64,000 nucleotides of DNA from positions 2,646 through 66,645 of the forward strand of contig JAZNDN010000026.1 of assembly GCA_045588085.1 (NCBI GenBank), written 5' to 3'. Shown here one piece after another: positions 10,318-45,632 of this stretch. The notes under the pieces were generated by a model. That model saw only the letters and a list, made by a program, of their open reading frames with translations, did no database searches and had not been told where the DNA came from. Source of the stretch: Eubacteriales bacterium (GTDB lineage Bacteria > Bacillota > Clostridia > Oscillospirales > CAG-272). A program made the position numbers and the translations under genes. Position 1 is the stretch's first letter. Each line of letters starts with the position of its first letter.

Positions 10318-11094
10318 TTATATTCTGAGCATAAGCTCTTTGGCGACTGCAGCATATTCCAGAGCGCCTTTACCGTATGGGTCGTGGTAGCATATAGGCT
10401 CTCCGTATCCGGGAGCCTCGGAAAGTCTGACGGTTCTGGAAATGGGAACCTTGAAAAGAGTGTCAGCATAATACTTTTTCAACTCTCCTACGACCTGATT
10501 CGTCAAGGTCAGTCTTCCGTTATACATAGTAAGAAGTATTCCGACCACTCGCAGCTCCGGATTGAAGAGCTGGCGTATTCGCTTTATGGTGTTATAAAGC
10601 TGAGACATACCCTCAAGCGAGTAAAATTCGCACTGCATAGGTATCACAACTCCGTCAGAAATAGACAAAGCCTTGACTGTGAGCATACCCAATGACGGCG
10701 GACAATCAATAAATATGTAGTCAAAATCTTCTTTTATAGATTCGATTGCTATTTTTGTGTAATTAAAACGCTCGTCTGCAGCGTCTTCCAGCTGATGCAG
10801 CTCAAGCTCGGCTCCCGCTAAGTCTATAGTTGCCGGTATTATGGAAAGATTTTTGAATCTGGTTTTAATTATAGCGTCATTTGCATTGCATTTTCCTATA
10901 ATTACGTCATAAATTGTCCTTTTTATCTTAGATTTAGGCAGTCCAAGACCGCTTGTGGCGTTACCCTGCGGGTCCATATCGATAATCAGAACCTTTTTAT
11001 TAGCTTTGTTGGCTATTTGGGCGGAAATATTAACGCAGGACGTTGTCTTCCCTACTCCGCCTTTTTGGTTGGAAAAAGAAATAATTTTTGCCAA
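10318..11094 (-). CDS. parA: Chromosome partitioning ATPase ParA/Soj
   Basis: 258 aa with the deviant Walker A NQKGGVGKTT and the Walker B-like block YIFIDCPPSLG. The RBS aaggagg lies upstream. Confidence 0.93.
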   Translation of the reverse strand: MAKIISFSNQKGGVGKTTSCVNISAQIANKANKKVLIIDMDPQGNATSGLGLPKSKIKRTIYDVIIGKCNANDAIIKTRFKNLSIIPATIDLAGAELELHQLEDAADERFNYTKIAIESIKEDFDYIFIDCPPSLGMLTVKALSISDGVVIPMQCEFYSLEGMSQLYNTIKRIRQLFNPELRVVGILLTMYNGRLTLTNQVVGELKKYYADTLFKVPISRTVRLSEAPGYGEPICYHDPYGKGALEYAAVAKELMLRI

Positions 11095-11176: not shown

Positions 11177-11436
11177 GTATATTATACCATAACTAAAAAA
11201 TGCTTGCTCGCAAGGGCGTTTTACACCATGGTCCGAGGCATGCAGGATGCGAATGCATCGGGCGCATAGCGCCTAAGACTTGCTTTGCAAGGATTTCTGC
11301 GTATATTATATCATAAATAAAAATGCTTGCTCGCAAGGGCATTTTTCTGCCTTGATTCAAGGTGCGCAGGATGCGAATGCATCGGGCGCATAGCGCCTAA
11401 GACTTGCTTTGCAAGGATTTCTGCGTATATTATACC
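11177..11436. repeat. Tandem direct repeat, period 124 bp, 2 full copies plus about 12 bp of a third
   Basis: Units start with gtatattata at 11177, 11301 and 11425. A core of ~70 bp is identical in both copies (gcaggatgcgaatgcatcgggcgcatagcgcctaagacttgctttgcaaggatttctgcgtatattata). Each unit carries short palindromes: CTTGC-N2/3-GCAAG (11203-11214, 11279-11291, 11326-11337, 11403-11415), GATGCgaatGCATC and GGCGCataGCGCC. Confidence 0.85.
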
Positions 11437-11489
11437 ACAAAACGCTTCTGTTTTCAATAGAAACAAAAGAAAAAACACAATTTATCGAA

Positions 11490-11505
11490 TGTTTCACGTG
11501 AAACA
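11490..11505. other. parS centromere-like site (perfect palindrome TGTTTCACGTGAAACA)
   Basis: Exact match to the Firmicute parS consensus TGTTNCACGTGAAACA, about 400 bp upstream of the parA start. Confidence 0.85.
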
Positions 11506-11670
11506 ATGATTGATTTTGTTAAAAAGAGGATATATATTAATGCGGAGAATATGTGCGAAAAATATTAAATACCCTGTTTGGTTATATACAAACAAAGCTG
11601 ATTTTTATACAAAAACCGATTTTTATGGAAAATAGCAGAGCAAAAAAGGAAAATGACCGATTTAGCCCAA

Positions 11671-11686
11671 TGTTTCACGTGAAACA
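11671..11686. other. Second parS site (identical 16-mer TGTTTCACGTGAAACA)
   Basis: Identical 16-bp palindrome 181 bp from the first. Both copies share the extended context AATGTTTCACGTGAAACA. Confidence 0.85.
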
Positions 11687-21345: not shown

Positions 21346-22887
21346 ATGGATCCGTTATCATTGATAATCGGTATCTGCGGTGGCGTCGTCGTCGGCGGCA
21401 TCGTAGGTTTTATTTTGAGACGTTCAATCGCAGAAAAAAAGCTCGGCTCCGCTGAGGAGCAGTCCAGAAAAATTCTTGAAGACGCTATCAAAAATGCCGA
21501 AAGCGCAAAGAAGGAAGCTATCATTTCCGCTAAGGAAGAGATTTTCCAGATGAAGAAGGAGGCAGATTTTGACGTTAAGGAGCGTAGGAAAGAGGTTTCC
21601 AGACTTGAAAGACGCATAACGCAGAAGGAGGAAACTCTTGATGCCAAGCTTGACGGTCTTGAGAGAAAGGAGCAGGCGCTTGCAGACAAGCATGCGGCTT
21701 TGGATAAGTTAAAGGCAGAGACCGAGGGAGTACTTGAGAAGCAAACTCAGGTGCTTGAGAAAATGGCAGGCCTTACAAGAGAAGAGGCGAAGAGCGAGCT
21801 GGTTGCAAAGCTTGACAGCGAAATGCAGCACGAAACCGCTCTTAAGATAGCAGAGTACGAGGAAAAATTCCGTGACGAAGCAGAGGGCAAGGCAAAGGAC
21901 ATTCTCTCTCTTGCTATTCAGCGCTACGCGGCAGACCACGTAAGCGAAATTGCAATTTCCGTCGTTCAGATACCCGGTGACGAAATGAAGGGAAGAATCA
22001 TCGGCCGCGAGGGAAGAAACATACGTACTATGGAAAATCTCACGGGAGTTGAGCTTATAATCGACGATACTCCCGACGTAATAACCGTTTCGGGCTTTGA
22101 CCCTGTACGCCGTGAGATAGCTCGCCTTGCACTTGAAAAGCTCATTGCCGACGGAAGAATCCATCCGGCAAGAATTGAGGAGATGGTTGAAAAGGCAAAG
22201 CGCGACGTTGACAACGCTATAAAGCAGGCAGGAGAGCGCGCGGTATTTGAAACCGGTGTTCACGGCTTGCACCCCGAGCTTATAAAGCTTCTCGGCAGAA
22301 TGAAATACCGTACCTCTTACGGTCAGAACGCTCTTCGCCATTCGATAGAGGTTTCTATGCTTGCGGGCGTCATTGCCGACGAAATGGGTGTTGACGTTAC
22401 TATGGCAAAGAGAGCGGGACTTCTTCACGACATAGGTAAGGCGGTTACTGCAGAGGCAGAGGGTTCGCATATTCAGCTCGGTGTTGAAATTGCAACCAAG
22501 TACCGCGAAAACAAGACTATAATTCATGCCATTGAAGCACACCATAACGACGTTGAGCCTGCCGGAGTTCTTGATTTCATAATTCAGGCAGCCGACGCCA
22601 TCAGTGCTGCCCGTCCCGGTGCACGTCGCGAGGACGTAGAGAATTACATTAAGCGTCTTCAGAAGCTTGAAGAGGTAGCGGGCGACTTCGAGGGAGTTGA
22701 AAAAACCTTTGCTATTCAGGCGGGACGCGAGGTCAGAATTATGGTTAAGCCTGAGGTTGTCAGCGACGATAAGATGAAGCTTCTTGCGCGTGATATTGCC
22801 AAGAAGATAGAAAACGAGCTTGATTATCCCGGTCAGATAAAGGTCAGTGTTATACGTGAGAGCAGAACCGTAGACTACGCAAAGTAA
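21346..22887 (+). CDS. rny: Ribonuclease Y
   Basis: 513 aa with an N-terminal TM helix ([21 protein letters not shown]), a coiled coil, a KH domain ([12 protein letters not shown]) and an HD domain ([10 protein letters not shown]). The RBS gaggagg lies upstream. Confidence 0.95.
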
Positions 22888-22979: not shown

Positions 22980-23052
22980 GATACTATTCGGTACAATTAT
23001 CCTATCGGCGAAGCGAGAGAGCTTCGTGCAGTATTGAAAAGGAGATTTTTTG

Positions 23053-26000
23053 ATGAAAGACAAAAAAGGAAAGCCTCAGGGACGCGGAATTGACGCCTTT
23101 TCCGATATATCGCTTAGCGGTATGGGAAAATACAACGAAAGAAATGCAGAGGCGCATAAGCTTAAAAGAATAGCCGAACTTGACGAAAGAATCAGAAAGT
23201 TCGCGCAAAGAGAGAAGGATGCTGAGTGGATAAAGGAAGCAGCCGAATTTTGCGACCGTGAAACTCTTGCAAACAAGGATATACTTTCCGAATCGCACGA
23301 AGCGTACAGACTTCCTCTCATAAAGGCAGAGGCGGAAAAACTTGAGGCTTTGGCTGCTGAGGCGGCTGCAGAGGCTGAGCGTGAAAGGCTTGCAAAAATA
23401 GAGGCAGACGGAAAGGCACGCTTGGCAAAGATACAGTCCGAAAACAAGGCGCGTATGGCTCAGATGGCAGCGGATGCTGCAAGACAGGCGGAGGCAGACA
23501 GGCTTGCAAACGAGGCAAGGATAGCCAAGGCAAAAGCCGATGCCGAGGCAACCCGACTTCTCAGAGAAAAGGAAGCTGAGGACGCAAGACTTGCCGATGA
23601 AAGACGCGACAGGGAAGAAAAGAAGAGACTGGCTAAAATTGCCGCAGATGCAGAGGAAAAGGCTCTTCTTGAGAAGATAGAACGCGAACGTGCCGCAGAA
23701 AAGAAAAAGCGTGATGCCCAGGCTCAAAGGGAACAGATAACAGAGCTTGCGGCAAAGGGTGACGAGCTCGTTGCAATGCTCGTTTCATCTCCGAGAAGCA
23801 AATTCTGGTGCGGTGAGGTAGAGCGCGCAAACGAGGAGATAAACGCATATCCCAGAGAAGCTCTCATTCTGATGAAGACGCTCCCCGAGCTTGAGAGAAT
23901 AGCGGAGGAGGCAAAGGCTCTTCAGCGCGGAATCGTTCTGGACAAGAAGATAGAAAAGCTTGCTGCGGTTAAGAAAAGAGATTCCGCATGGGCTGAGGAG
24001 GTTCTTTGGTGCGAATCTGAGCTTTCTCTAGTCGGTGAGGATAGTACCAAGAGTGAAAATGCGCTTTACTCGCTGATTAAAGAAGCAAGGAGAATAAAGT
24101 ACAGTGAATACATAGCTCCCTACGAAAAGCTCGTAAGGGATTTGCGCGCGATGAGTGCAAAAACCGTGACCGATGCTCATTGCGAAAGATACAACAAGCT
24201 TAACGACCAGCTTTCCTCGCTTGAGTTCGATATTTGTGAGTTCATTGATGAGTTCGAGATTGAATGGGAGAGCATAAGAGCAAAGATTCTCCAATATCTC
24301 AGCAATAAGGCGGATGCAGAAAGACAAACAAAAATAGACCGCGAACGCCGCGAGAGAGAAGCTCTTGCAGAAGCCGAGAGGGAAAAGGCTAAAAAGCGTG
24401 CAGAGGCAGAGGAAAACGCGCGCCGCAAGATATCCGAGGAATACAGAATCCTGCTTCAAACCATTGAAAGCGGAAGCTTTGACGATTCATTGGCTTCGTT
24501 TGAGGCATACGACAAGAAGCGTTCCTCTCTTGATTTCTCACTTTCCGACAGAATTGAAAACTTTGAAAATCGTATGGTAGCGGCAAGACTTGCCGTTGAT
24601 AAGCGCAATGCCGAGATTGAAGCAGCCGAGAAGCACCGCGCGGAAGAAGCAAAGCGTGCAAAGGCTGCAGCTGCAAAAAAGGCTGCCGACGAAAAGAGGC
24701 GCCGTGCAAGGCTTGCCGCAATCCGTCAGAATTTAGGAACTATAATATCAGTCAGCATAGTGGTGCTGCTTTGTGCCGCATGCGCTGTCGGAGCGATTCT
24801 TCTTGCAGATAGCAGAATGCTGTTTATTGCCGCTGCAATATTCGTTGCCGTCGGCTTCTCGGTTATGCTTATGAAGCCGATAATCTTCAAGAGCGTATCC
24901 GATATGGTAGTAACTCTGATTTCCAGAGCGGCTCTTTTCATCGGTGCGATAATTCTCGTTTTCATACCCCAGACGCGCCTCATAGGCATTGCCTTGGGTG
25001 CTGTGCTGGTGCTTTCGGCAGTTGAGCTTGTTCTTGACGTTATGATATCCAACCGTATGCTCAGCGCGAAGAGCTGGTATCGCTCAAAGGGTGACGCCGA
25101 AGCAGCGTTTTATATCAATATGGTAGCGGTAGCCTGCGGAATTTGCGCGTCATGCATCGGACTTGGATTTATCGTCGGAGCATCGAATTTCGTTATCGGC
25201 GTTTTGATTGCCGTCGGCGGAAGCGCTGCTGCATATCTGGCGCTTGCCATTGCGGTATACATCTTAACCGACTTACAGCACGAGTGTTATTACGTATTCT
25301 TCGCGGTTGATGCCGCTCTCATGGTTCTTTCGGTAGTTCTTACCTTTGTTTCCAGAGCCGGCGTGCAGATAGCGCTTGCAATAGGCATAGCAACGGCAAT
25401 TCATATACTCGTTTGTGCTATTATGAGTACGTACGCAGAGTATGACGATGCGCTTATGTGCTTGCTCTGGGTAACCTTTGCAGTTCAGGTTATTGCAGTA
25501 ATTCTTTCTCTCCTTATCTTCTTAAAATTCTGGGGAACTAAGGACTTTGTCGTAAGCCCCGACGGAGAGCTTGTCGGAGTGTTCGTTCATAACGGAGAAG
25601 ATGTTCTTGAAATCCCGGAGGTTATTGACGGGGTAACCGTAACCTCAATAGCCGACAGCTGCTTTGACAGAATTTCCGTAAGCGGCAGACGCAGTTACGA
25701 CAAAATTGTTCTGCCCGATACCGTGACAAGTATAGACGATAGCGGTCTTGCCTGGTGCTCAGTTCCCACCGTAGTGCTTAGCGAGAATATAAAAACCATA
25801 GGTGACGGAGCGTTTGCTTATTCGCACATTACCGAGCTGGTAGCTCCCGATGGCGTTGAATTTGACACGGACAAGGGCCATTACATTCCCGCCGGCGTTA
25901 CCTCTATTGGTAAAGGCGCATTTGCCGAAAGCAGACTTGCCGGAAAGCTCACGCTTCCCGACGGCATAACCTCAATCAAAGCGAGCACCTTTGAGGCGTC

Positions 26001-26418
26001 TGCAATAGAGGAGGTTGTGGCAAACAACGTCAAAACGGTTGAAGAAAACGCTTTTAAGAATGCTGTAAGTCTTCACACCGTAAGCTTTGGCGACGGTCTT
26101 GAGCGTATTGGTGACAGTGCATTCAGAAACTGCGAAAAGCTCACCGAGGTAAATCTTCCCCAATCGCTCAAATACGTTGGTGACGTTTCATTCGGCGGTT
26201 GTAAAATACTTGCGGAGATTGACCTTTCAATGGTAAAGGAAATCGGTGCCGAAGCTTTCAAGAATTCCTATGCGAGTATTAACGTCCACCTCGGCAAAAA
26301 CCTTACAAGACTGGGTGACAATGCATTCGCGGGCGCAGCCTCTGCGGTCGTTCATTACAGCGGAACCGAGTCCGAATGGAACAAGGTGAAGGGTAACAAC
26401 AGCCCCACACTTAAATAA
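23053..26418 (+). CDS. Giant membrane protein: ~560-aa cytoplasmic Ala/Glu/Lys/Arg coiled coil, ~9 TM helices, and a C-terminal extracellular BspA-type leucine-rich-repeat domain
   Basis: The RBS ggaga lies 7 nt before the ATG at 23053 (the ORF track starts at the TTG at 23050). The coiled coil has repeats such as ERERLAKIEADGKARLAKIQ...KRLAKIAADAEEK. Nine hydrophobic segments fall between about nt 24735 and 25535. The C-terminal ~290 aa has the repeated pattern ..VTSIg..AF..c..L..v.LP..l..IGd.AF (LRR_5/BspA-like). Confidence 0.8.
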   Translation: MKDKKGKPQGRGIDAFSDISLSGMGKYNERNAEAHKLKRIAELDERIRKFAQREKDAEWIKEAAEFCDRETLANKDILSESHEAYRLPLIKAEAEKLEALAAEAAAEAERERLAKIEADGKARLAKIQSENKARMAQMAADAARQAEADRLANEARIAKAKADAEATRLLREKEAEDARLADERRDREEKKRLAKIAADAEEKALLEKIERERAAEKKKRDAQAQREQITELAAKGDELVAMLVSSPRSKFWCGEVERANEEINAYPREALILMKTLPELERIAEEAKALQRGIVLDKKIEKLAAVKKRDSAWAEEVLWCESELSLVGEDSTKSENALYSLIKEARRIKYSEYIAPYEKLVRDLRAMSAKTVTDAHCERYNKLNDQLSSLEFDICEFIDEFEIEWESIRAKILQYLSNKADAERQTKIDRERREREALAEAEREKAKKRAEAEENARRKISEEYRILLQTIESGSFDDSLASFEAYDKKRSSLDFSLSDRIENFENRMVAARLAVDKRNAEIEAAEKHRAEEAKRAKAAAAKKAADEKRRRARLAAIRQNLGTIISVSIVVLLCAACAVGAILLADSRMLFIAAAIFVAVGFSVMLMKPIIFKSVSDMVVTLISRAALFIGAIILVFIPQTRLIGIALGAVLVLSAVELVLDVMISNRMLSAKSWYRSKGDAEAAFYINMVAVACGICASCIGLGFIVGASNFVIGVLIAVGGSAAAYLALAIAVYILTDLQHECYYVFFAVDAALMVLSVVLTFVSRAGVQIALAIGIATAIHILVCAIMSTYAEYDDALMCLLWVTFAVQVIAVILSLLIFLKFWGTKDFVVSPDGELVGVFVHNGEDVLEIPEVIDGVTVTSIADSCFDRISVSGRRSYDKIVLPDTVTSIDDSGLAWCSVPTVVLSENIKTIGDGAFAYSHITELVAPDGVEFDTDKGHYIPAGVTSIGKGAFAESRLAGKLTLPDGITSIKASTFEASAIEEVVANNVKTVEENAFKNAVSLHTVSFGDGLERIGDSAFRNCEKLTEVNLPQSLKYVGDVSFGGCKILAEIDLSMVKEIGAEAFKNSYASINVHLGKNLTRLGDNAFAGAASAVVHYSGTESEWNKVKGNNSPTLK

Positions 26419-26459
26419 ACGCAATCCTAAAAACTAATTTTGGAGAAAAAGTCCTTACG

Positions 26460-29400
26460 ATGAGTACTCTTAGCGAACGCATAAGGACGGCGAGAGAGCG
26501 CTATGAGCGTGAGTGCGCCGCGATAAAAGAAAAATATACGGAGCTTATATCCGAGAAGCGAAACGAGATAAAAGAACTTAAGGCAACGGATTTTTATGCA
26601 GGATACATAGAAAGCTATGCTGCATCTTTAGACACGCTTGAGGGCATATACCGCGAAATCGAGGATATTCAGGACAAAACTCTCGGCATTGAGTTCAGGG
26701 TGAGAAGGTACATTTCCACTCTGAAGCCGAGGGCATGCACTAACGGTGCGCTTGAATATTTCTCAAGGCTAGTTGCCGAATGCCGCGAGGCTATAATGCT
26801 CGTGCGCACAAGCTCCTCAATTGAAAACGACGTAGCACCGCTTAAGCGCTTCTGCCAGGGTCTTGTAGATTTGCGCCATCTTAACGAGTGTGCCGCAGAA
26901 TATCTTAAGAACGACGGAACCCCCGACCGCGAGAAGAAAGAGGCGGTAGCCGAGGCGGAGCGTGAGCTTAAGGCTCTTAACGAGGAGTACGACAAGGCTT
27001 GCAGATTTGAAAATATGGCCTGCTTCGCTGAGTGCAGCGCCTTGAAGAGCAGCATTAATTCCGATGCCGCAAGGCTCGATAGCATGCGTCTCGGAACCGA
27101 GCCCGCAGGAGAGACGGACGCTTCGAATGGATATAATTTCCTTATAGGATTTTCGAAAACCAACCTTGCCGAAGCAGACAGAATATTTGCCGAGAAAATA
27201 CTCGGAGTTGACCCCAGAGGGCTTTCTGTGGCACCTGTGTATTTCAATTACCGCTCCGGGCACAGCACTCTTATAATAAGAGCGAGCGAGAAAAAGCTCT
27301 TTGACAGAGGCTGCCTTGCGCTTATGCGTGACTTATATTTCTCAATAGCAGGAAGCATTTACTCGGGCGGCATGCAGTATTTTTGCGCCGAATGTAATCC
27401 TAAGGGGACTACGATAGTCGGAAAAATAGCGAGCAAGATAAACTCAAAGATAGGAAAGAATTTCCTTATCGGCTCGGCAGACAATATACAGGATATGTTG
27501 AAAGGCTTTGACGGACTTCACGAGATATGGTCAGAGCATTCGAACGCTTATCTTGATTATGCTGATATTTTCGAGTACAACTCTAAAAACCCCGACGGCA
27601 AGCACACCTTTGTTCTTGCTAATATCTACGGATATCCGGAATGTATCAATACGGACAACTCCGGTAAATCCTATGAGCTTCTCGCGAAGATGGCGGGCGA
27701 ATGGGGAGACGAAGGCTTTATCACCGTTATCGCAGAGCGTAGCGACGGTAAATTTAACGCCAACGCACCTAAGCTCAGCCCGGAGGCTCTCGGAGCAGAC
27801 CTGCTCGAGATTGACGATAACGGGAATGCTTATTTTAACGGACAGATTATAGATACGAAAATACAGGGCAACGGATTTGATGCCGAAACCTATTGGAATT
27901 CACTTAGCAGATATTCCGAAATAACCGTATCCACCGCGCTTTCGGATACTATTGCTCAGCTTGCTATTGACAGAAAGAACGGTGTCAAGAAGACTGCTCC
28001 TTACTACGATAAATTCATTATACCCATGGGTGCAAACGAGGATACCACCGGATTTGACGTGGAAATCTCGTTCAGCACTAACCAGTGCTTCGGTATAATT
28101 CTCGGAGGAACGAGGTCGGGTAAGTCCTCGTTCATGCACTCCTTTATTCTTTCTGCCTGCTCCCATTACTCGCCCGACGAGGTACAGTTTTATCTTGCTG
28201 ACTTCAAGGCGGCGGGCAAGGAGGCTCCGGAATTTTCAAATTACCAGAAGCTTGACGGGCTTAAAAACTTAGCTGTTCCGCACGTCCGTTATCTGCTTCT
28301 TCAGAGCAGCGCGGAAAATGCGATAGACCTTCTTAATAAAATCACCTCGCTTATGAAAGAGCGAACCGTGTTCTTCCGTACGAAAGGAAAACGTCCTTAT
28401 ACCTCTTGCAGCGAGTACAACGCCAGCGAGGAGGTAAGAACAGGTAAAGCGCCGAAGCTGCCGTTTATATTCTTCCTTATTGACGAGGCGAACAATATGC
28501 TCACCGGTGGACTCAAGAACATAAGCAATGGAAATACCGATGCCGCCGGTAATGCAAGGCTGCTCGGACAGATAAAGAACAGCCTTGAGAATATACTTAA
28601 GCAAGCAGCATCAGCCGGTGTGGGAATAATCTTTGCCGGTCAGGACACAAAGGGACTGAGCAGCGGCCACCTTGCGCAAATCGGTACGAGAATATGCCTT
28701 AAGGTTGACGACGAGCAGATTTTCAGAAATATATTCAATATTCCGTACAGCGACGTTTCCAAGATGATAATGCGCTTGGAAAAGGGAAAGGCTTACTATA
28801 CCAATAAGGGTATGCGAGAGGCTCCCAAATTCGTCAGAACGGCGTATGCGGGGAAAACCTCGGGGGAGCAGGCGCTCGGAATTGCTGAAAATATCAGAAA
28901 CGCCTACCTGAGTGATGAGCGTTATGCGAAAATGCTGGATATGCAGACTCTTGCAGGCAGCGAGGACTTCGTAAGTGTTGGCTATGCAAGGAGTGCCGAG
29001 GCTGAAGCTAAGGCTAACGAGGAGGCGCTTCCGGCCGACAAAAAGAGATTTGCCAATTACCACAGAATACTTATGGGTATCAGCGGTGCCTGCGGTTTCC
29101 CGTCTTACCTCGAGTATGATACGAACGTAGGCTCAAGAGGATATTACGTCGTGGCGCCTGAGGAGAGGCTTCTCAGCATTGAGCGCTGCGCTATGCTTTC
29201 CTTCCTTGATGGGCACAGAAAGGCCGACGGCTCATTGCCCGAGCTTCATTATTATGCTTTGCCGAATATAATGGAGGTCGGAATGGACGAGATGCTGAGG
29301 GCGGCTCCCGAGCTTGACGGAATGATTGACGTAATAAGGGAGCAGAGCAAATTTGCTATTAAGGTTATGGAGCTCGGTGACGCTTTCAGAGAAAGGCATA

Positions 29401-29996
29401 AGCAGTTTGTCGGGGGGCGTAGCAAAGCCTTTGACCCGGTGCTCTTCGTCGTGCATAACCCCGATTTTGTGTACGATAAAACCTTTACCCAGTGGCTACC
29501 GGACTTTAACGATGCTGAGCAGGTAAGCGACTGTGACGAGGAAAGCTTTGAGCAGAGTGAAGAGTTCGACGATATAGACGCGCTTCTTGATGCGGTTTCC
29601 GAGGAGAGTGACGAGGATATCATAAGCGTATTCGAATCCTTTGAAGACCCTAAGACCGAGCCTAAGAAGAAAAAGGAACCGTTTGCGAAGAAAACCGACT
29701 CGTTCACCCTCAAGGACGTCAGAGACACCTTTACTATGCTCTTTGAGAAGGGCAACAGATATTCGATATACGTCATGGTGCTTGCAACAACCGAGAATAC
29801 TGTAAGCATGATAAAATCGGGTCTTGGTGCAAGCCACGATTTCTGTATCTATCCGTCCTTGGCTGAAATGCGGCATGAGGAGGGGGCGACAAGCGGTGTC
29901 GGCTGTGCCTACATAATTCCCTCGGGAGTTAAGACCAGAATTATAGAATATACGGACGATGATATCCGAAGGATAGCAAAAGGCTCCGAACGATAA
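26460..29996 (+). CDS. Soluble FtsK/SpoIIIE/EssC-family P-loop ATPase with one intact and two apparently degenerate ATPase repeats
   Basis: Walker A GIILGGTRSGKSSF (nt 28104-28127). Walker B LPFIFFLIDEANNM (D675/E676 at nt 28482-28487). The blocks PDEVQFYLADFK, AASAGVGIIFAGQDTKG and IGTRICLKVDDEQ are co-linear with the FtsK motor core. No TM-length hydrophobic segment. Coiled-coil N-terminus and acidic C-proximal stretch. Confidence 0.85.
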   Translation: MSTLSERIRTARERYERECAAIKEKYTELISEKRNEIKELKATDFYAGYIESYAASLDTLEGIYREIEDIQDKTLGIEFRVRRYISTLKPRACTNGALEYFSRLVAECREAIMLVRTSSSIENDVAPLKRFCQGLVDLRHLNECAAEYLKNDGTPDREKKEAVAEAERELKALNEEYDKACRFENMACFAECSALKSSINSDAARLDSMRLGTEPAGETDASNGYNFLIGFSKTNLAEADRIFAEKILGVDPRGLSVAPVYFNYRSGHSTLIIRASEKKLFDRGCLALMRDLYFSIAGSIYSGGMQYFCAECNPKGTTIVGKIASKINSKIGKNFLIGSADNIQDMLKGFDGLHEIWSEHSNAYLDYADIFEYNSKNPDGKHTFVLANIYGYPECINTDNSGKSYELLAKMAGEWGDEGFITVIAERSDGKFNANAPKLSPEALGADLLEIDDNGNAYFNGQIIDTKIQGNGFDAETYWNSLSRYSEITVSTALSDTIAQLAIDRKNGVKKTAPYYDKFIIPMGANEDTTGFDVEISFSTNQCFGIILGGTRSGKSSFMHSFILSACSHYSPDEVQFYLADFKAAGKEAPEFSNYQKLDGLKNLAVPHVRYLLLQSSAENAIDLLNKITSLMKERTVFFRTKGKRPYTSCSEYNASEEVRTGKAPKLPFIFFLIDEANNMLTGGLKNISNGNTDAAGNARLLGQIKNSLENILKQAASAGVGIIFAGQDTKGLSSGHLAQIGTRICLKVDDEQIFRNIFNIPYSDVSKMIMRLEKGKAYYTNKGMREAPKFVRTAYAGKTSGEQALGIAENIRNAYLSDERYAKMLDMQTLAGSEDFVSVGYARSAEAEAKANEEALPADKKRFANYHRILMGISGACGFPSYLEYDTNVGSRGYYVVAPEERLLSIERCAMLSFLDGHRKADGSLPELHYYALPNIMEVGMDEMLRAAPELDGMIDVIREQSKFAIKVMELGDAFRERHKQFVGGRSKAFDPVLFVVHNPDFVYDKTFTQWLPDFNDAEQVSDCDEESFEQSEEFDDIDALLDAVSEESDEDIISVFESFEDPKTEPKKKKEPFAKKTDSFTLKDVRDTFTMLFEKGNRYSIYVMVLATTENTVSMIKSGLGASHDFCIYPSLAEMRHEEGATSGVGCAYIIPSGVKTRIIEYTDDDIRRIAKGSER

Positions 29997-30034
29997 AACG
30001 TTACAAAATCAAAACCGAAAGGAAAAAAACGACG

Positions 30035-30325
30035 TTGAACGACATATACAGCTACGAGGATATGATAGCAGCGTGCGACGACTGCGGCAGAGTCCTTGAG
30101 AAAATGAAGAGTAGCGTTGCAAGCTTCGAAACGGCAACCGGAATTTACTCGGTGTCGATAAAGGACAAGATTTCAGCAGCTGCAAATAAGCTCGTAGACG
30201 AGCTTAACGCGATTATTGCAAGCTCCCAAATCATCATAACCAAGATGAACCAAATGATCGGACAGAGCGGCGAGGAGTTCGCGGAGCTTGAAGACCAGGG
30301 TGAAGGAGAGATTAACGATATATGA
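30035..30325 (+). CDS. Small (96 aa) predicted helical-hairpin protein, candidate EsxB-like partner of the WXG protein
   Basis: TTG start with aaagga upstream. Size, predicted all-helical composition, an acidic C-terminal tail (EEFAELEDQGEGEINDI), and a 4-nt ATGA overlap with the next ORF. Confidence 0.55.
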   Translation: MNDIYSYEDMIAACDDCGRVLEKMKSSVASFETATGIYSVSIKDKISAAANKLVDELNAIIASSQIIITKMNQMIGQSGEEFAELEDQGEGEINDI

Positions 30326-30642
30326 GCATGGATAATAAAATCATTTCCAAGGGTGCAAATGCGGACAAATTCGTTGCGGAATATGCCTCTGAGGTTAAGA
30401 ACTTCGAGAGCGAGATGAGAGAAGAAATCAGTAATATGTACTCGATTTTGGACGGACTTTTCGATGCATGGACGGGTGAAATAGCCGACCTTTACAGAGG
30501 TAAAATACATCAAAATCTCGAGATGCTCCTGCTTTCCTGCGAAAAAACCGAAAAGCTCGCTGCTGTGCTTGATAAGCGCGCAGCACAGATGAGGGCGGTT
30601 CTTGAAAAGCTGAAAAGAGGCTCTGAGGCAGACGATAACTGA
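30322..30642 (+). CDS. WXG100-like small protein (106 aa)
   Basis: W50-T51-G52 (nt 30469-30477) sits mid-protein in the context LFDAWTGEIADLY, flanked by two helical halves. Compare the EsxA-type ..W.G.a...f hairpin turn. It is translationally coupled to the preceding ORF. Confidence 0.6.
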   Translation: MSMDNKIISKGANADKFVAEYASEVKNFESEMREEISNMYSILDGLFDAWTGEIADLYRGKIHQNLEMLLLSCEKTEKLAAVLDKRAAQMRAVLEKLKRGSEADDN

Positions 30643-30764
30643 TGAGAAAATCCTAATCAGCACGGAAAAGGGTATCTGTGCTTTCGGTTCTCGCGTCTTT
30701 GGCGAAGAGTACAAGCTCAGGCTTGCTGACTTTGAAATGCATTAAACGATTGTACGAGGGATTT

Positions 30765-31055
30765 ATGGGACAAAATTACACGGTTAAAAAATTCAAGGCT
30801 GACTGGGGATTTTTCAATCTCGATACGAGCTTCTCGCACGAGCACGTGTCGGTTCCTCCCGGGGCGCACCGCTGGAATGATACGGTTGGCAGAAGCCTTA
30901 CGGGCTGTCTTGACACCGTTGCAAGACGCTTTAATTCCTTTTCCGACGGTGCTTGGCGTTCTATTGAAAGAAGCCAGGATATCGGAGTTGAGGAAATGGA
31001 CCCTTACGAGAGCTGCTCGCAACAAATAGCACAGCTCCGTATCGACGTGGATTAA
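30765..31055 (+). CDS. Hypothetical small protein (96 aa from ATG 30765; the ORF track extends to GTG 30678)
   Basis: The ATG at 30765 is preceded by gaggga. No family recognised. Same strand and tight spacing within the operon. Confidence 0.45.
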   Translation: MGQNYTVKKFKADWGFFNLDTSFSHEHVSVPPGAHRWNDTVGRSLTGCLDTVARRFNSFSDGAWRSIERSQDIGVEEMDPYESCSQQIAQLRIDVD

Positions 31056-31064
31056 GGAGGCGTT

Positions 31065-31946
31065 ATGGCAAGCGTTTCCTTTACGATTTATGAGCTTATG
31101 AGCTTTTGCTCCGCATGCGCAGAGATGAGCGATGCAATAGAATCAGAAAAGAACAGCTTTGTTTCCGCTGCCGAAACGGCTATCGGCAAATACGAGTCGG
31201 CAAGAGAGATATATTCGCAGTCAATAGAAGCTATGAGGTGGGATGAGAACGAGGCGAGCCTCGTGTACGAGCAAAACCTTCGCGCTATTGATTCTCTGGA
31301 GGGAAAGCTTAGAGATGCGAAATCCGCATTGTCAAGCGCCGCCGAGGGCGCCAAGACGAGTGCGCAGAATGAGGTTAATAATCTGGAAACCGCACTTAGC
31401 AAGGCGGAAAATATAAACAGCCAGCTTGATTCTCTTCGCCGGAAGCTTACCAGAAGAATGGACGAATATCGGAATGCAATGAGAATATGCGACGATAATA
31501 TCAGCTCTTTGCGTGCTGATATCGGCAACATGGAGCGCTCTGCAGCAAATGCCATAGACGTTATCGGAGAGCTTGAGGATGCCGGCGAGACGGCTCAGGA
31601 ATACGGCGATAGGGTGCTTGAGCTTCTCGGAGGCAGTGAGCTTTCGGGTGACCGCCGCGGAATAAGAATTAAATTTTCGGACGTTTCAGTTCTTGAGGTG
31701 TTCGCCTCGGAGCTTGTGCGTATGTCCGAGGATATTGCGAAAGGCACTGCTGTTGCCGAGGAGGCAAACGGCAACGTGCAAAGCTCAATGCGCGACAAAA
31801 TAACCAGAGCGGCAATAGCAAAGCTCAGGGAAATAGAGAGTGAGATGTTGAGCGGCGCAGGCGCACTCGCGAAGCTCGGCAAAAATGCCGCGAGAGCATA
31901 TGATTATCTATGCGAATATCTGTCGTTGGCAAGAACGGTAAGCTGA
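31065..31946 (+). CDS. Hypothetical 293-aa all-helical / coiled-coil protein
   Basis: The strong RBS aaggagg lies 5 nt upstream. The composition is Ala/Glu/Ser/Leu-rich with heptad-like periodicity and no TM helix. It is the last gene of the inserted operon. Confidence 0.7.
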   Translation: MASVSFTIYELMSFCSACAEMSDAIESEKNSFVSAAETAIGKYESAREIYSQSIEAMRWDENEASLVYEQNLRAIDSLEGKLRDAKSALSSAAEGAKTSAQNEVNNLETALSKAENINSQLDSLRRKLTRRMDEYRNAMRICDDNISSLRADIGNMERSAANAIDVIGELEDAGETAQEYGDRVLELLGGSELSGDRRGIRIKFSDVSVLEVFASELVRMSEDIAKGTAVAEEANGNVQSSMRDKITRAAIAKLREIESEMLSGAGALAKLGKNAARAYDYLCEYLSLARTVS

Positions 31947-32008: not shown

Positions 32009-32782
32009 TTGAAAATACTCGCAATAGGTGACGTAACCAGCCCCTCGGGCGTGCGCCACCTTGAACAGAACCTGTGGGCTTTCCGTAAGGCTCACAGCGT
32101 AGACCTTTGCATTGTAAACGCCGAAAACGCATCATTTGTAAACGGCGTTAACGAAGCTCTGGCGGAGGTTTTGCTCCGCTCGGGTGCGGACGTTCTTACG
32201 GGAGGCAATCACACGATGAAGCCCGGCGGCTCGACGAGCTTCTTGGATGAAAACAGCCTTGTTCTCCGTCCCATAAATTACGGCAATGCCGTTGCCGGAA
32301 GGGGATATACGGTTGTCGATTTAGGGCATACGCGTGTCTTGGTTATAAACGCTATGGGAAACTATCACATGGACCCGGTGCTTGACGCTCCTTATTCCTA
32401 TATTGACAGAGCGCTTGCCGAGTGCGAGGGAGAATACGATATAGCCATTTTGGATATTCACGCGGAGGCAACCGGAGAGAAGCTTGCGATTGCATTTAAC
32501 TACGACGGAAAAATTCAGGTTATATTCGGCACGCATACCCACGTTCCGACGGCAGACGGAAGAATATTGCCTATGGGAACGGGATATATCAGCGACCTCG
32601 GAATGTGCGGTGAGAGCGGCGGGATTATGGGAATGGAACCCGAAAGCGTCATCTACAAGCTGAAAAATCACCTGCCGGGCGCGTTCCGCGTGGCAAAGGG
32701 TGCTCCTGTGGCGGACGGCGTGTTATTCACCGTAGACCTTAAAACACGCAGGGTCAGCTCGGTTGAAAGAGTTACAATATAA
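32009..32782 (+). CDS. ymdB: YmdB-family metallophosphoesterase (2',3'-cyclic-nucleotide phosphodiesterase-like)
   Basis: TTG start. MKILAIGDVTSPSGV, NAENA, GGNHT, DIHAEATGEKLA and GTHTHVPTAD are co-linear with B. subtilis YmdB. Confidence 0.88.
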   Translation: MKILAIGDVTSPSGVRHLEQNLWAFRKAHSVDLCIVNAENASFVNGVNEALAEVLLRSGADVLTGGNHTMKPGGSTSFLDENSLVLRPINYGNAVAGRGYTVVDLGHTRVLVINAMGNYHMDPVLDAPYSYIDRALAECEGEYDIAILDIHAEATGEKLAIAFNYDGKIQVIFGTHTHVPTADGRILPMGTGYISDLGMCGESGGIMGMEPESVIYKLKNHLPGAFRVAKGAPVADGVLFTVDLKTRRVSSVERVTI

Positions 32783-36210: not shown

Positions 36211-37206
36211 TTATATAACAAATCCTATCTTTTTCTTTACCTTGCTAAGAATTTTACGGGCACAGTATCTTGCCTCGTCGGCACCTGCCTTCATAACCGA
36301 TTCGATGTGCGCTTTGTCAGCGATAAGTCTTGAAAACTCGTCACGTATCGGGGCTAAACCGTCTGCGCATGCCTCTCCGACTGCAAGCTTGAAATCTCCG
36401 TAGCCCTTGCCGTCAAACTCTTTTTCTATCTCGGCGTAGTCCTTTCCGGTAAACGCCTTGTAAATCGACATCAGGTTGGATATACCGGGCTTATCCTCGG
36501 AATATCTGATGCAGCTGTCGGAGTCGGTAACGGCTCTGCGGAACTTTCTGATTATATCGTCCTTGGAATCGAGAATGTAAACCGAGGCGTTGGGATTTTC
36601 GTCGGATTTGGACATTTTTGCCGTGGGCTCGGCGAGCGACATTATTCTCATCGTGTCCTTGGGGATATAGCAGTCGGGAACGGTGAAGGTGTCGCTGTAC
36701 GACTGGTTGAAGCGTATGGCAATATCACGTGCCAGCTCAAGATGCTGCTTCTGGTCTGCACCGACGGGTACGAGGTCGGTACCGTAGAGAAGAATGTCCG
36801 CTGCCATAAGCACGGGGTAGGTGAAAAGGCCTGCATTTATATTCTGGGCGTGCTTGGCGCTTTTGTCCTTGAATTGAGTCATTCGCGAAAGCTCTCCGAA
36901 CATTGTATAGCAGTTCAGAAGCCAAGCCAGCTCGGCATGCTCCGGGACGTGAGACTGAACGAAAAGAGTATTCTTCGTTTCGTCAAGACCGCAGGCGAGA
37001 TAAAGAGCCAGCGTTTCGTAGGTTCTGCGGCGAAGCTCTGCCGGAACCTGACGGACGGTTATGGCGTGCAAATCCACCACGCAGTAAAAGGTTTTATAGT
37101 CGTCTGAGAAGCGAGAAAAGTTCTTGATTGCACCAAGATAATTTCCGATTGTCAGATTTCCTGAGGGCTGAATACCCGAAAAAACGATTTTCTTATCGCC
37201 GAGCAT
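36211..37206 (-). CDS. trpS: Tryptophan--tRNA ligase
   Basis: 331 aa. FSGIQPSGNLTIGNYLGA (HIGH-type), GADQKQHLELARD and the KMSKSD motif. Co-linear with B. subtilis TrpS. Confidence 0.95.
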   Translation of the reverse strand: MLGDKKIVFSGIQPSGNLTIGNYLGAIKNFSRFSDDYKTFYCVVDLHAITVRQVPAELRRRTYETLALYLACGLDETKNTLFVQSHVPEHAELAWLLNCYTMFGELSRMTQFKDKSAKHAQNINAGLFTYPVLMAADILLYGTDLVPVGADQKQHLELARDIAIRFNQSYSDTFTVPDCYIPKDTMRIMSLAEPTAKMSKSDENPNASVYILDSKDDIIRKFRRAVTDSDSCIRYSEDKPGISNLMSIYKAFTGKDYAEIEKEFDGKGYGDFKLAVGEACADGLAPIRDEFSRLIADKAHIESVMKAGADEARYCARKILSKVKKKIGFVI

Positions 37207-42696: not shown

Positions 42697-42713
42697 AGGA
42701 GGGCTTGATTTTT

Positions 42714-45632
42714 ATGAAGATTGTAAGAAAAAAGAAGAAAAAAGCACTCCTGATTTTGATTCTGGCAGTATCCCTCGTGCTTCTAACCGTGGGTGCGGTG
42801 CTTCTCAACACTTTTTTGAAAAAAGACCCAGAGACACCTAAGCCGGAGCCACCCGAAATTATAGAGGGCGAGGCAATACGTAACAATTCCGCAATTGCAT
42901 ATCCGTATATTGATGAAAAGGATATAACGACGATAAGCGTTGTCGGAAAGGACAACACATATTCGCTTGCAAGACAGGAGTTCAAAAATGACGACGGGAA
43001 AACCACGTACGGCGATTTCGTCTTGTTTTACTACGATGCAAACGGTGAATTGCGCGAATACAGACCGCCAATTCTTGATGCCGACCCAACGGTTAGCTAC
43101 GGAGATATATACGCCATAGAAGCCAATGACAGCTTTGGCATTATTCCCAAGCTATCCTATCTTTGCTCTGCTCTCGGAACGCCTTATTTCAAGGAAAGAA
43201 TAGCGATTCCCGAGGATGAAGATGAAAAGAATGAAATGTACCGCCGCTTCGGTCTTGACCAGAAAAACGGAGTATATGTGTATTTTGAGTATATAGACGA
43301 GGACGGAGAGCTTCAGAATCGTACCGTTATAATCGGAGCCCCTATGATTACCGGTGTCGGCCATTACTTCAGGGTCGAGGGAAGACCCTACGTGTACTCG
43401 GTTGAAATCAACAACTACTACGATTACGCATTAGCCGATTTTACCTCCTTTATCAAGCCGGTTATTACCGCTGCGGGACTGAAAATGGACGGAGCATTCG
43501 AGCCGTACCTTACCACAGGCTTCGGACAGTGGAAGAACGTTTTGTATGAAAATACAGTGACGGATAAAACCGAAGGCTTTGATACCGTTGCGGAGGGCGC
43601 CACCGTTACTGTAACAGCAGCAACTCTGACACCGTCAGGGGTTGAGGGACATATAGACGGCTATCTTAAAGGCAAGTTCATAGACGAGAGCTTCGACCTT
43701 ACCAAGACCGACGGTGACGACCTTTATAAGTATAGCATTGCGGCGCTAGAGGGCATGCCGCTTGACGAGCTTGACAGCAATATATTTATCAGCGGCCTGG
43801 ATTATATCAATGCAAAGCTCATTGATGCCGATGCGATTTCCGACGGAGTAGTCTATGAGTACACGGTAACCGCCATAGAATCGGTTATAACCGAGAGCGG
43901 TGAAATCGCGGCAATCGGTACGGCTGTCGGTGACGAAAAATACGTAAAGGTTAAATATACCGTTAAAATAGACGGCAAATCCACCTCGGACGTACCGCAG
44001 CACGCAGTTATAAATCTTGACGACGGACTCGTTGGCGACACCGCTGAGGAACAGATAAGAGCCGCCACGGTAGGAGAGCTTTCCTCTCCCATAGTTTTCG
44101 AGGTTGAGTACACAGAGGAAAACTGTGTAAAGCGCAATATGCTTATCACCGAGATAATTACCATTCGCGATAAGAACGATAAAACGCTTAAGATTGCAGA
44201 GCCCGGCTCGACGGTTATGTACCGCTTCCGCTACGTAGTAAACGGTGTTATGCTGGATAAATACGGAACGGGTACGGTTGTTATAAGCGACGAAAACGAG
44301 GGACAGGATGCCGAGATATCCGATGCCCTTGAAGGAAAGAAGCAGGCAAAGGAGCTCAATATCGAGATATCCGACGGAAGCTACGAGCTTATGCACGCAT
44401 TCGTTGCCTACGAGATTTCCGCGATTAAGTATTTTACCCTGAGTGAGAATATCGTTTCATTCAGATTCCAGCAGGCATCGGCCAGAGACCCCTACTACGG
44501 TGAATCTCTTTATGAGAATACCATGGAGGGCAAGTATCAGATGTATGCTCTTAATGCTACTGCATGCGAGTCTGTCGTTAAGATGCTTGGCGGAATAGGC
44601 GAGGATAGCTCTGCGTCAACCGGAATGACGGGACTTGAAACCGTTGCCATTGGCTTGACGCCGAAAAATATGTATGATTACGATTTGTACGATTACACCG
44701 TGTATTTCGAGCTTCCGCGAGGCATAACAGCCGTGAATAACGATTCTGCCGACAGCGACGCGCTTGACGATTACACCTATTACAGTACTCTTGGCTTCAC
44801 GCTTTACGTCAGCGAGGTTAAGGTGGAAAAGGGCGTCAGATACAGATACGTCGGCTCGGATATGTACGACGTTGTAGCCAAGGTTCCCGCAGACGATTTT
44901 CTGTTCCTTGAGTACGGATTTGCAGATTTTTACGCGAGAAGAAATCTTATGCTTACTAATATATCGAATATTGCCAACATTAAGTTCGACTTTTTGATGG
45001 AAGATATAAAAGGAAGCTACAACAACGAGCTAATCCATCAGAATCTGTATACTTACAACGGTGCCGTGTATCACAAATCCGAGCTTAACGAGTCTCAGCT
45101 CAGTCAGGCAACCCAGTACGACGCTATTACCGTAAGCATTACTCAAAAGGGCGATTGTACCGAAACCGCGTTTTCCAAATATCTGGACGCAAAGGGACGC
45201 AATACCGCCAGTCTTTACGAATTCTTTGACAAAAAGACGGATAAATTTGACCAGCTCGGAACCGCTGTGTTCAAGGAGCTGACGGAGATGATATTCTACA
45301 CATATTACGAGGGATACATTTCTGAGGACGATACGAGATATTCCTGGAAAGACGGAGTGCACCTTATGACGATGAGCGTCACTCTTTGCGACGAGAGGGA
45401 GAGCGATAAGTTCGAGATTTATTCGCCGTACGACTACGTGTATGAGTTTTACCGTGTGTCCGACAGACGCGTCGTGGTAAGACTTTATCAGCAAAACCGT
45501 GTAACAGGTGAGGTTGTGAACGAGGTTTCCGATTTCTATTTATCCACATTTGCCTTCAAAAAGATAGTGAACGGATATATCGGAATACTCAACAAGGAGC
45601 GTATTGACAACGATATCCCCTACTCACAGTAG
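42714..45632 (+). CDS. Large N-terminally anchored extracytoplasmic protein, possibly DUF4340-like (the usual partner of GldG-type ABC systems)
   Basis: The RBS aaaggaggg lies 10 nt before the ATG at 42714 (the ORF track starts at the TTG at 42705). MKIVRKKKKKALLILILAVSLVLLTVGAVLL is a signal anchor. The beta-rich body begins DITTISVVGKDNTYSLARQE. The family assignment comes from gene order and weak motif recall only. Confidence 0.55.
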   Translation: MKIVRKKKKKALLILILAVSLVLLTVGAVLLNTFLKKDPETPKPEPPEIIEGEAIRNNSAIAYPYIDEKDITTISVVGKDNTYSLARQEFKNDDGKTTYGDFVLFYYDANGELREYRPPILDADPTVSYGDIYAIEANDSFGIIPKLSYLCSALGTPYFKERIAIPEDEDEKNEMYRRFGLDQKNGVYVYFEYIDEDGELQNRTVIIGAPMITGVGHYFRVEGRPYVYSVEINNYYDYALADFTSFIKPVITAAGLKMDGAFEPYLTTGFGQWKNVLYENTVTDKTEGFDTVAEGATVTVTAATLTPSGVEGHIDGYLKGKFIDESFDLTKTDGDDLYKYSIAALEGMPLDELDSNIFISGLDYINAKLIDADAISDGVVYEYTVTAIESVITESGEIAAIGTAVGDEKYVKVKYTVKIDGKSTSDVPQHAVINLDDGLVGDTAEEQIRAATVGELSSPIVFEVEYTEENCVKRNMLITEIITIRDKNDKTLKIAEPGSTVMYRFRYVVNGVMLDKYGTGTVVISDENEGQDAEISDALEGKKQAKELNIEISDGSYELMHAFVAYEISAIKYFTLSENIVSFRFQQASARDPYYGESLYENTMEGKYQMYALNATACESVVKMLGGIGEDSSASTGMTGLETVAIGLTPKNMYDYDLYDYTVYFELPRGITAVNNDSADSDALDDYTYYSTLGFTLYVSEVKVEKGVRYRYVGSDMYDVVAKVPADDFLFLEYGFADFYARRNLMLTNISNIANIKFDFLMEDIKGSYNNELIHQNLYTYNGAVYHKSELNESQLSQATQYDAITVSITQKGDCTETAFSKYLDAKGRNTASLYEFFDKKTDKFDQLGTAVFKELTEMIFYTYYEGYISEDDTRYSWKDGVHLMTMSVTLCDERESDKFEIYSPYDYVYEFYRVSDRRVVVRLYQQNRVTGEVVNEVSDFYLSTFAFKKIVNGYIGILNKERIDNDIPYSQ

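Follow-up and report, generated by a model that had tools for sequence, protein, structure and literature searches.

In the current classification of type VII secretion systems (T7SS), which runs from T7SSa to T7SSj, all ATPases (TsxC) are membrane-bound and most systems include a YukD-like TsxB (Garrett, Higginson & Palmer 2024, PMC11217815). A different arrangement appears in a footnote of Zhang, Aravind et al. (2012, Biol Direct 7:18, Table 1 footnote 6), where 'mobile versions of T7SS' are given a distinct YueA-like ATPase; this ATPase has three HerA/FtsK domains, with activity confined to the central one, and a solo WXG protein lies adjacent to it. On T7SS with a soluble ATPase, the literature we searched held nothing past this footnote. 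Here we describe a locus in a stretch of 64,000 nucleotides from a gut-type genome of the Clostridia (Eubacteriales bacterium, GCA_045588085.1, contig JAZNDN010000026.1; the whole stretch is called the window), in which six genes at 23050-31946 probably form one unit, a type VII-like export or assembly system around a soluble ATPase derived from the EssC/EccC lineage. It is a barely described branch of type VII-like systems, and our reading of it draws on homology and on the gene neighbourhoods of relatives, from which we infer channel, cargo and secretion. The six genes lie on one strand with small gaps, between rny (21346-22887) and ymdB (32009-32782; product identified by PF13277, 2.7e-81), and are arranged as follows.

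23050-26418, +: upstream protein (UPN), 1122 aa, with an LRR_5 match (Pfam, 1.6e-38) and transmembrane (TM) helices placed from hydropathy and manual parsing
26460-29996, +: soluble EssC/EccC-like ATPase, 1178 aa, one active P-loop (Pfam PF01580, 6.5e-15)
26460-27101, +: ATPase N-terminal helical domain (N-domain), aa 1-214, clade-specific (helices of the structural model; N-domain profile, dN)
27102-27989, +: ATPase d0, aa 215-510, degenerate FtsK-like domain without P-loop (hhalign against d1)
27990-28949, +: ATPase d1, aa 511-830, the active domain (Pfam; profile search of PDB; invariant K555, D675 and E676)
29052-29993, +: ATPase d2, aa 865-1178, C-terminal alpha/beta region, probably a second degenerate ATPase-like domain (Foldseek; weak hhalign)
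30035-30325, +: S1, 96 aa, predicted helical hairpin with acidic tail, TTG start (structural model; orthologues)
30322-30642, +: WX, 106 aa, divergent WXG100 protein (PF06013; orthologue profiles)
30765-31055, +: S3, 96 aa, conserved small protein without family match (orthologues; other gene callers)
31065-31946, +: P2, 293 aa, all-helical (orthologues; hhalign to S1)

A preliminary description of this DNA had reported the ATPase gene and a translationally coupled WXG100-like pair behind it. Its statements about open reading frames, motifs, the ATGA overlap shared by the S1 and WX frames and the position of the W-T-G motif were all reproduced, and the WX start lies 326 nt past the ATPase stop. 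The 'minimal pair' was an undercount, as S3 and P2 are conserved as strongly as S1 and WX. Independent gene callers give the four small genes as 96, 106, 96 and 293 aa. The start of S3 is most likely ATG 30765 (96 aa) and not GTG 30678 of the mechanically called frame, because homologues and two independent gene callers begin at the former. A scan for promoters and terminators over 22.7-32.9 kb returned counts no higher than in shuffled sequence, and the operon limits are therefore based on gene spacing only.

The ATPase carries a single FtsK_SpoIIIE domain (Pfam, aa 527-656, E 6.5e-15), with the Walker A motif GGTRSGKS at aa 549-556 (nt 28104-28127) and the Walker B motif LPFIFFLIDEANNM at aa 667-680 (nt 28458-28499). 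K555 and D675/E676 are invariant in a 45-sequence family alignment, which bears out the claim of a single Walker A/B motor core. A protein lacking TM helices and an FHA domain, with a coiled-coil N-terminus, had also been proposed, and this stands: no TM segment is present (the highest Kyte-Doolittle 19-residue mean is 1.01), Pfam and NCBIfam scans gave no FHA match, and an AlphaFold2 (AF2) model built from 20 sequences (mean pLDDT 64.8, pTM 0.37) places a helical N-domain at aa 2-210, followed by an alpha/beta domain at 225-465 and the P-loop domain at 519-775. The C-terminal alpha/beta region of the model is of low confidence and holds an acidic disordered insert at aa ~1018-1078. The further proposal of three tandem repeats with only one catalytic has good support as regards the first repeat, and as regards the third it is plausible, since the repeat signal is strong for d0 and weak for d2. 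When slices of the 45-sequence alignment are compared, d0 (aa 215-510) comes out as a degenerate copy of the P-loop domain, the two being in register (hhalign probability 96.4, E 1.2e-9): 'STLIIRAS' coincides with the Walker A strand and 'HTFVLANIYGYP' with Walker B. The sequence signal for d2 is weak (hhalign probability 12-36) and d2 has no P-loop; a 1046-column structural alignment of the whole protein makes a second degenerate ATPase-like domain probable there.

That structural alignment is the top Foldseek match of the ATPase model, to the three-ATPase cytoplasmic part of Thermomonospora curvata EccC (4nh0, 5.7e-15). It is followed by D2-D3 of EssC and EccC over ~580 columns (EssC D2-D3 at 4.3e-13), with the single-domain FtsK motor (4.5e-10) and TcpA (1e-7) lower in the list. 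The sequence comparison agrees with the fold: a six-orthologue profile searched against PDB sequences finds T. curvata EccC at 1.9e-17, ESX-5 EccC5 at 1.2e-11 and B. subtilis YukB at 6.7e-10, and E. coli FtsK only at 0.022, the matches falling on D1, the first catalytic domain of EccC. The best NCBIfam models are likewise those of EssC and EccC (TIGR03928 EssC, 1.5e-14), although the ATPase scores well under the cutoffs of the equivalog models TIGR03928/03924/03925 (52.7 bits against a cutoff of 778 for EssC). The ATPase is of the EssC/EccC lineage and not FtsK- or TcpA-like. The EssC/EccC kinship suggested beforehand is thus supported by profile search and by fold, with FtsK and TcpA ranking below EccC and EssC.

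We accept the 106-aa product, WX, as a divergent WXG100 protein by sequence comparison, as had been proposed. Its W-T-G motif is at nt 30469-30477, near residue 50, and it matches PF06013 at 2.9e-4 (21.5 bits, under the gathering cutoff (GA) of 27.3). All four WX orthologues compared match the same family, the best at 9.2e-6, and in a search with the orthologue profile B. anthracis EsxB (4j41) scores 1.7e-4, the WxG motifs lying in register with each other. In 10 distinct orthologues the W is invariant and the G is present in nine. When enlarged with class I orthologues (classes I, II and III are our labels for ATPase clades, and L001-L086 those of fetched loci), the profile finds a protein annotated by NCBI as 'WXG100 family type VII secretion target' on a Caballeronia plasmid (1.4e-8). 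The 96-aa product, S1, had been taken for an EsxB-type partner. It is the first gene 3' of the ATPase throughout, with orthologues in L001-L005, L009-L012 and L018/19, and its AF2 model (pLDDT 79.4) is a hairpin of helices 7-42 and 45-93 with the turn at an invariant D44. The Foldseek list for this model consists mostly of WXG100 and PE structures (TM-score up to 0.74), but with E-values of 0.6-2, which a fold of such simplicity leads one to expect. No significant sequence relatives of S1 were found outside its own family (E 0.35 in the WXG100 comparison), and S1 has no WxG motif. The hairpin of the earlier proposal therefore stands as a model, a WXG100 similarity is not borne out by sequence, and S1 is compatible with a WXG100-like partner, short of proof. 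S3 contains a conserved W-x-D-x-V-G ... FN motif and has orthologues of 70-96 aa in the same position in L001, L002, L004, L009, L010 and L011; it gave no Pfam match and no detectable relatives in profile comparisons. Profile-profile links between S1 and WX, between S3 and WX, and between S1 and the 'YAIS' domain of classes II and III were insignificant (probability <25), and an assignment of S1 or S3 to WXG100 by sequence was dropped for that reason. P2 has orthologues of 271-356 aa in L001, L002, L004, L009, L011 and L019, and its C-terminal ~80 residues resemble S1 (hhalign of P2 aa 212-292 against S1, probability 80, E 1.4e-5). Against Pfam and PDB it gave generic coiled-coil matches only, which leaves an LXG-like identity unsupported, and it shows no similarity to the proteins encoded after the WXG gene in Gram-negative plasmid loci.

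UPN begins with a coiled coil on the cytoplasmic side in which W-x-x-E modules recur (aa ~1-555); about nine TM helices follow (aa ~566-831), and an LRR_5 domain of the BspA type makes up the C-terminus. By manual parsing the number of TM helices before the LRR is odd and the N-flank strongly basic, and the LRR domain is on these grounds predicted to lie outside the cell. The N-terminal module is the part conserved across lineages, and the C-terminal parts vary: the N-terminal region is kept in the upstream proteins of L001, L002, L004, L009 and L011 (BLAST; phmmer), a polytopic TM region with LRR_5 follows it in the window, L002 and L004, and a polytopic TM region alone in L001 and L011. UPN paralogues are doubled or tripled in L001, L004 and L009. 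At 4297-9990 of L009 stand three tandem paralogues of the UPN module that have no TM segment and end in DUF6273, which replaces the TM region and LRR. L010 encodes a soluble Sel1 protein (750 aa, no TM) plus a separate 3-TM protein, and the upstream protein of L014-17 has 298 aa and is without the TM region. A profile of the N-terminal module returned nothing at E<=1e-3 from a set of 5.8 billion proteins. When the distribution of the ATPase N-domain is followed with its own profile, every lineage that has this domain also has the upstream W-x-x-E module protein, and none has one without the other; from this strict co-occurrence we infer that the two bind. The preliminary description had the soluble ATPase docking onto a different membrane platform, with this upstream protein as the only membrane protein of the operon. 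The 9-TM UPN of this genome fits such a role, but the role is not general to the family, in which the TM region and LRR are missing from some lineages and only the N-terminal module is conserved.

At least six lineages, and four distinct chromosomal settings, have the cassette. The window, L001, L002/3, L004/5, L009, L010 and L011 all show the order ATPase-S1-WX-S3-P2, which holds down to 25% identity of the ATPase (33% in L001, 28% in L009, 25% in L010); L019 retains ATPase-S1-WX-P2. Its flanks differ, being rny/ymdB in the window, L002 and L004, glyS and MR_MLE in L001, a BcrAD-type gene in L009 and a GTPase gene in L011. The constant order and the changing flanks show the cassette to be a conserved block that can relocate. 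In many Bacillota rny is next to ymdB; the two are parted by the cassette in the window, and the same insertion is seen in L002-L005. The class I loci examined, which have housekeeping flanks, showed no gene for a relaxase, for replication or for an integrase, the borders not having been inspected for integrase or repeats. A full-length relative of the ATPase is absent from 72,556 plasmids and from 50,697 phage records, and the plasmid relatives are partial. A word-indexed search gave six full-length ATPase relatives, the nearest named ones being from metagenome-assembled genomes of uncultured Clostridia and Lachnospiraceae, and a pattern scan that used the class I profile gave three loci among 185,579 species-representative genomes. 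Metagenome-assembled genomes with the cassette include GCA_017461945.1, CAZEXL01 and JAGBBQ01. An exhaustive search of 1.84 billion proteins returned 131 representatives (50% identity clusters) at E<=1e-30, and the family members inspected are mostly of ~1100-1200 aa with one Walker A motif and no TM segment. Among 43 loci, not de-duplicated, that have a soluble ATPase of 1050-1250 aa and enough downstream sequence, 32 carry a small gene of the WXG clan within 4 kb downstream, usually behind a first gene of ~93 aa. A solo WXG-type gene stands beside the ATPase in all class I loci. In L011 a further frame of 557 aa (6670-8343), with a match to the ATPase family profile at 1.4e-28, is inserted behind the main ATPase and ahead of S1.

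Class II ATPases (~1160-1190 aa) stand behind a conserved trio, a protein of ~800-1100 aa, a 2-TM protein of ~650 aa and a 4-5-TM protein of ~1440 aa. The first of these is Tubulin_2 (PF13809) in L023 (9.4e-36), and the two membrane proteins matched no Pfam family. Loci of this class are L021-L023, L025, L028, L029, L041, L068 and L075. Class III is a clade of ~1112-aa ATPases with homology over aa 354-1113 (hhalign probability 99.5), in which the ATPase is preceded by a kinase/VWA/PP2C trio and also by an LRR_5 protein without TM segment or signal peptide. The class III loci L006 and L007 lie in a Ter-type cluster with three TerD genes, kinase, VWA, PP2C, ATP-grasp_Ter, PRTase_2 and C-C_Bond_Lyase. 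Downstream of the ATPase, classes II and III alike have an S1-like gene of ~93 aa ('SYEEMI') and then a gene of ~97 aa whose product matches T7SS_ESX_EspC (6.7e-7, 30.1 bits against GA 23.5) and, weakly, WXG100. Proteins encoded further on begin with ~100 residues of this same EspC/WXG-clan family and end in ADPrib_exo_Tox (1.6e-26, 2.3e-31), Colicin-DNase/WHH or Gln_amidase (deamidase) domains or, in one case, in an unclassified HExxH domain, with small genes downstream. By their sequences, the shared N-terminal domain, the toxin-like C-termini and the small downstream genes together give these proteins the signature of exported polymorphic toxins. Toxins beside relatives of the ATPase argue for a role in export, and in this respect the neighbours favour the T7SS-like reading of the preliminary description. 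The plasmid relatives show a similar company. Caballeronia pSBC2-5 has the order VWA-WXG100-...-927-aa ATPase-CARF-VWA-PP2C-kinase, and Helicobacter pNHP190012_1 has a WXG-like gene, HNH, SMI1/KNR4 and an 823-aa family ATPase. The two ATPases match the family HMM A10 at 2.8e-60 and 1e-57, over d0 and d1 only, with one Walker A motif and no TM segment, and the WX profile picks up the two WXG proteins (1.4e-8 and 8.3e-8). L047, L071, L072, L080, L081 and L086 encode ATPases of 1340-1400 aa with two N-terminal TM segments, one strict Walker A motif and WXG-like genes ~5 kb upstream; they may be relatives, anchored in the membrane, of the lineage with a single active site.

We propose a model for the six genes that most reasonably fits these observations. 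The ATPase would oligomerise, and its N-domain would bring the motor to the cytoplasmic W-x-x-E/coiled-coil module of UPN, in this genome a 9-TM membrane protein with a predicted external LRR. The ATPase would then take up a pre-formed bundle of S1 and WX, probably together with S3 and P2, and hydrolysis of ATP at the sole active site would push this bundle to or through the membrane. P2, in which no toxin domain is recognisable, would be the likeliest main cargo or else a surface or structural product. Type VII-like export appears to be the best reading because sister clades carry EspC/WXG100-clan proteins and toxins tagged with them, and because the plasmid relatives lie beside WXG100 and HNH/SMI1 genes. 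A more far-reaching version, which we put forward tentatively and regard as somewhat doubtful, is that of a self-sufficient type VII-like pathway in gut Clostridia with a wholly cytosolic motor and a translocon made from proteins unrelated to known T7SS parts. The translocon candidate would be the W-x-x-E/9-TM/LRR protein in the window, and the pair of ~650-aa 2-TM and ~1440-aa 4-TM proteins in the sister clades.

Several observations weigh against type VII-like export. No conserved channel is evident, the TM region of UPN being missing in L009, L010 (the 750-aa protein) and L014-17 (the 298-aa protein), and L019 has no obvious upstream partner at all. WX scores under the curated cutoffs of Pfam and NCBIfam; S1, S3 and P2 received no significant family assignment in sequence, profile and fold searches; and the model of the ATPase is moderate, with its C-terminal domain poorly modelled. 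No YukD-like ubiquitin fold was found in the cassette, and YukD is nearly universal in T7SSb-j (PMC11217815). The window cassette has no toxin/immunity pair, and the literature searched holds no experiment and no secretion data for any member of the soluble-ATPase family. Some of these points serve the main rival, an intracellular and non-secretory conflict or signalling complex in which an FtsK/HerA-type ATPase works with coiled-coil and helical adaptors and a repeat-domain sensor (LRR, Sel1 or DUF6273), as in NTPase-centred defence, the WXG-like proteins being adaptors. It remains the main rival because in several lineages the LRR_5, DUF6273 or Sel1 partners are soluble, without signal peptide or TM segment, and because class III stands in Ter/TerY-kinase-PP2C clusters and the Caballeronia locus among CARF, VWA, PP2C and kinase genes. 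The want of a conserved channel protein is in keeping with it, as are PADLOC matches of the ATPase domain to mad8 (4.4e-20) and SspH (3.7e-7). We nevertheless hold it to be unlikely. The mad8 match is to the generic ATPase domain only and the other five proteins have just weak coiled-coil or SMC-like defence matches; the ATPase is nearer to EccC/EssC than to FtsK/HerA in sequence and in fold; N-terminally tagged polymorphic toxins with small genes downstream are a hallmark of export; the kinase/VWA/PP2C trio belongs also to bona fide T7SSc; and the LRR of the window is predicted to be external. Membership of an anti-phage defence system was considered separately and rejected, PADLOC giving the generic mad8/SspH match for the ATPase and, for P2, coiled-coil matches to JetC, LmuB and BrxC only.

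The strict co-occurrence of the ATPase N-domain with the upstream N-terminal module can be read in another way, in which the cassette is an assembly or quality-control machine and the ATPase, with small helical chaperones, folds, inserts or extracts UPN and exports no small protein. The duplicated or triplicated upstream paralogues of L001, L004 and L009 and the lack of a toxin in the window cassette's class would suit this machine, but in L019 ATPase-S1-WX-P2 is maintained although no upstream partner can be recognised, and the sister-clade ATPases are paired with unrelated upstream proteins and toxins, and we consider it improbable. Less probable still, and in our view very unlikely, is that the genes are strays or accessories of a canonical T7SSb elsewhere in the genome, whose membrane-bound EssC would export the small proteins. 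The genome was viewed through 64 kb, and Bacillota often have their WXG100 and LXG accessory modules scattered. On the other side, the cassette brings a conserved ATPase of its own, whose catalytic residues are invariant and which is kept in strict synteny with the small genes over many loci; it moves as a block; and no T7SSb component was found among the frames scanned in the 64-kb window. The least credible of the alternatives, to which we give hardly any weight, sees in the ATPase a translocase of DNA or a coupling protein for conjugation, of the FtsK/SftA/TcpA/TraB kind, with unrelated small frames beside it. Soluble FtsK-like translocases such as SftA exist, the Pfam family is FtsK_SpoIIIE, and the FtsK motor (4.5e-10) and TcpA (1e-7) are among the Foldseek matches. 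This reading is opposed by the gap between FtsK (0.022) and EccC (1.9e-17) in the PDB profile search, by degenerate flanking ATPase domains in an EccC-like layout, by the lack of genes for relaxase, replication or integrase in the class I loci examined, and by the plasmid and phage records, which yielded no full-length relative.

Other features of the window lie outside the cassette. Two copies of TGTTTCACGTGAAACA, which we take to be the parS consensus, are present at 11489-11505 and 11670-11686 in an ORF-poor gap of 1.6 kb that adjoins soj/parA (10318-11094, -) and parB (9395-10282, -). At 11177-11441 a unit of ~124 bp is duplicated in tandem (families D1/D3/D4, 88-96% identical) and contains the GC-rich palindrome GCGCATAGCGC. 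A scan of the window (1-64000) at Rfam gathering thresholds found no RNA family, and no T-box before the tRNA-synthetase genes at 36211-37206 (-) and 51907-54525 (-). Three frames at 42705-45632, 45825-47687 and 48323-50065 (975, 620 and 580 aa), downstream of ABC transporter and ABC_transp_aux genes, gave no Pfam match at 1e-5.

The identity of the T7SS channel and its coupling to the ATPase are still debated, and in T7SSa-j the ATPases are all membrane-embedded. A soluble motor with one active site, together with proteins of the WXG100 clan, offers a natural 'minimal' system in which substrate recognition could be parted from translocation. If the pathway exists as proposed, the transmembrane helices of EssC/EccC would be dispensable for type VII-type transport, and a large unstudied system for delivery of toxins (ADP-ribosyltransferases, nucleases) would be present in the gut microbiota. 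Should export be confirmed, the toxin-bearing clades would represent a new route of interbacterial antagonism for gut Clostridia. The family is sizeable in metagenomes, with its 131 clusters, and nearly absent from isolate genomes, and for the latter reason it is missing from current classifications.

Compared with the known systems, the window cassette shares with T7SSb (EssC/YukB, EsxA, EssA, EssB, EsaA, EsaB/YukD) an ATPase of the EssC/EccC lineage beside a WXG100 protein and small partners of helical-hairpin form, and the toxins of its family relatives are tagged by an N-terminal helical domain, as LXG toxins are. It differs in that the ATPase has no FHA domain, no TM segment and a single P-loop, and EssA, EssB, EsaA and YukD are missing. 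Scans with Pfam and NCBIfam gave no match to these four or to EccB, EccD, EccE and MycP in the cassette or in the other large frames scanned of the 64-kb window, in agreement with the preliminary description, which had recognised no EsaA, EssA, EssB or YukD nearby. EccC of T7SSa (T. curvata 4nh0; ESX-5 EccC5) is the best match in sequence and fold and likewise has a degenerate ATPase-like domain ahead of the catalytic D1, but it is membrane-anchored, has nucleotide-binding D2 and D3 and works with EccB/D/E and MycP. The two TM helices and three nucleotide-binding domains of a canonical T7SS ATPase are not found in the window protein, which has one Walker A motif. T7SSc-j resemble the locus in having alternative gene sets around an EssC-like ATPase and WXG100 in Bacillota, and the kinase/VWA/PP2C trio of T7SSc also flanks the class III relatives, yet the cassette fits none of T7SSa-j and the soluble-ATPase family is absent from that scheme (PMC11217815). 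FtsK, SftA and TcpA have the same RecA-like FtsK motor fold with Walker A and B motifs, and differ by far weaker similarity, a single motor domain and DNA-handling contexts.

The closest precedent is the type noted by Zhang et al., with which the window ATPase agrees in having a degenerate d0, an active d1, a d2 without P-loop and a WXG gene beside it. The paper gives no accessions, and the Caballeronia and Helicobacter plasmid loci are presumably those that were meant. Given this architecture and the homology to the plasmid ATPases, which match the family HMM at 1e-57 to 1e-60, the kind is known in outline, and the word 'undescribed' used in the preliminary description was too strong. The plasmid ATPases are shorter (823-927 aa), are without the N-terminal helical domain, are encoded 3' of the WXG gene on Gram-negative plasmids and have VWA/PP2C/kinase/CARF genes or HNH-SMI1 pairs as companions. 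The window cassette, in contrast, is chromosomal and belongs to Clostridia, and S1, S3, P2 and the W-x-x-E/TM/LRR protein are undetectable in the plasmid loci. What is new is this Clostridial chromosomal form, with an N-domain added to the ATPase, a partner module protein of its own and three extra conserved helical proteins.

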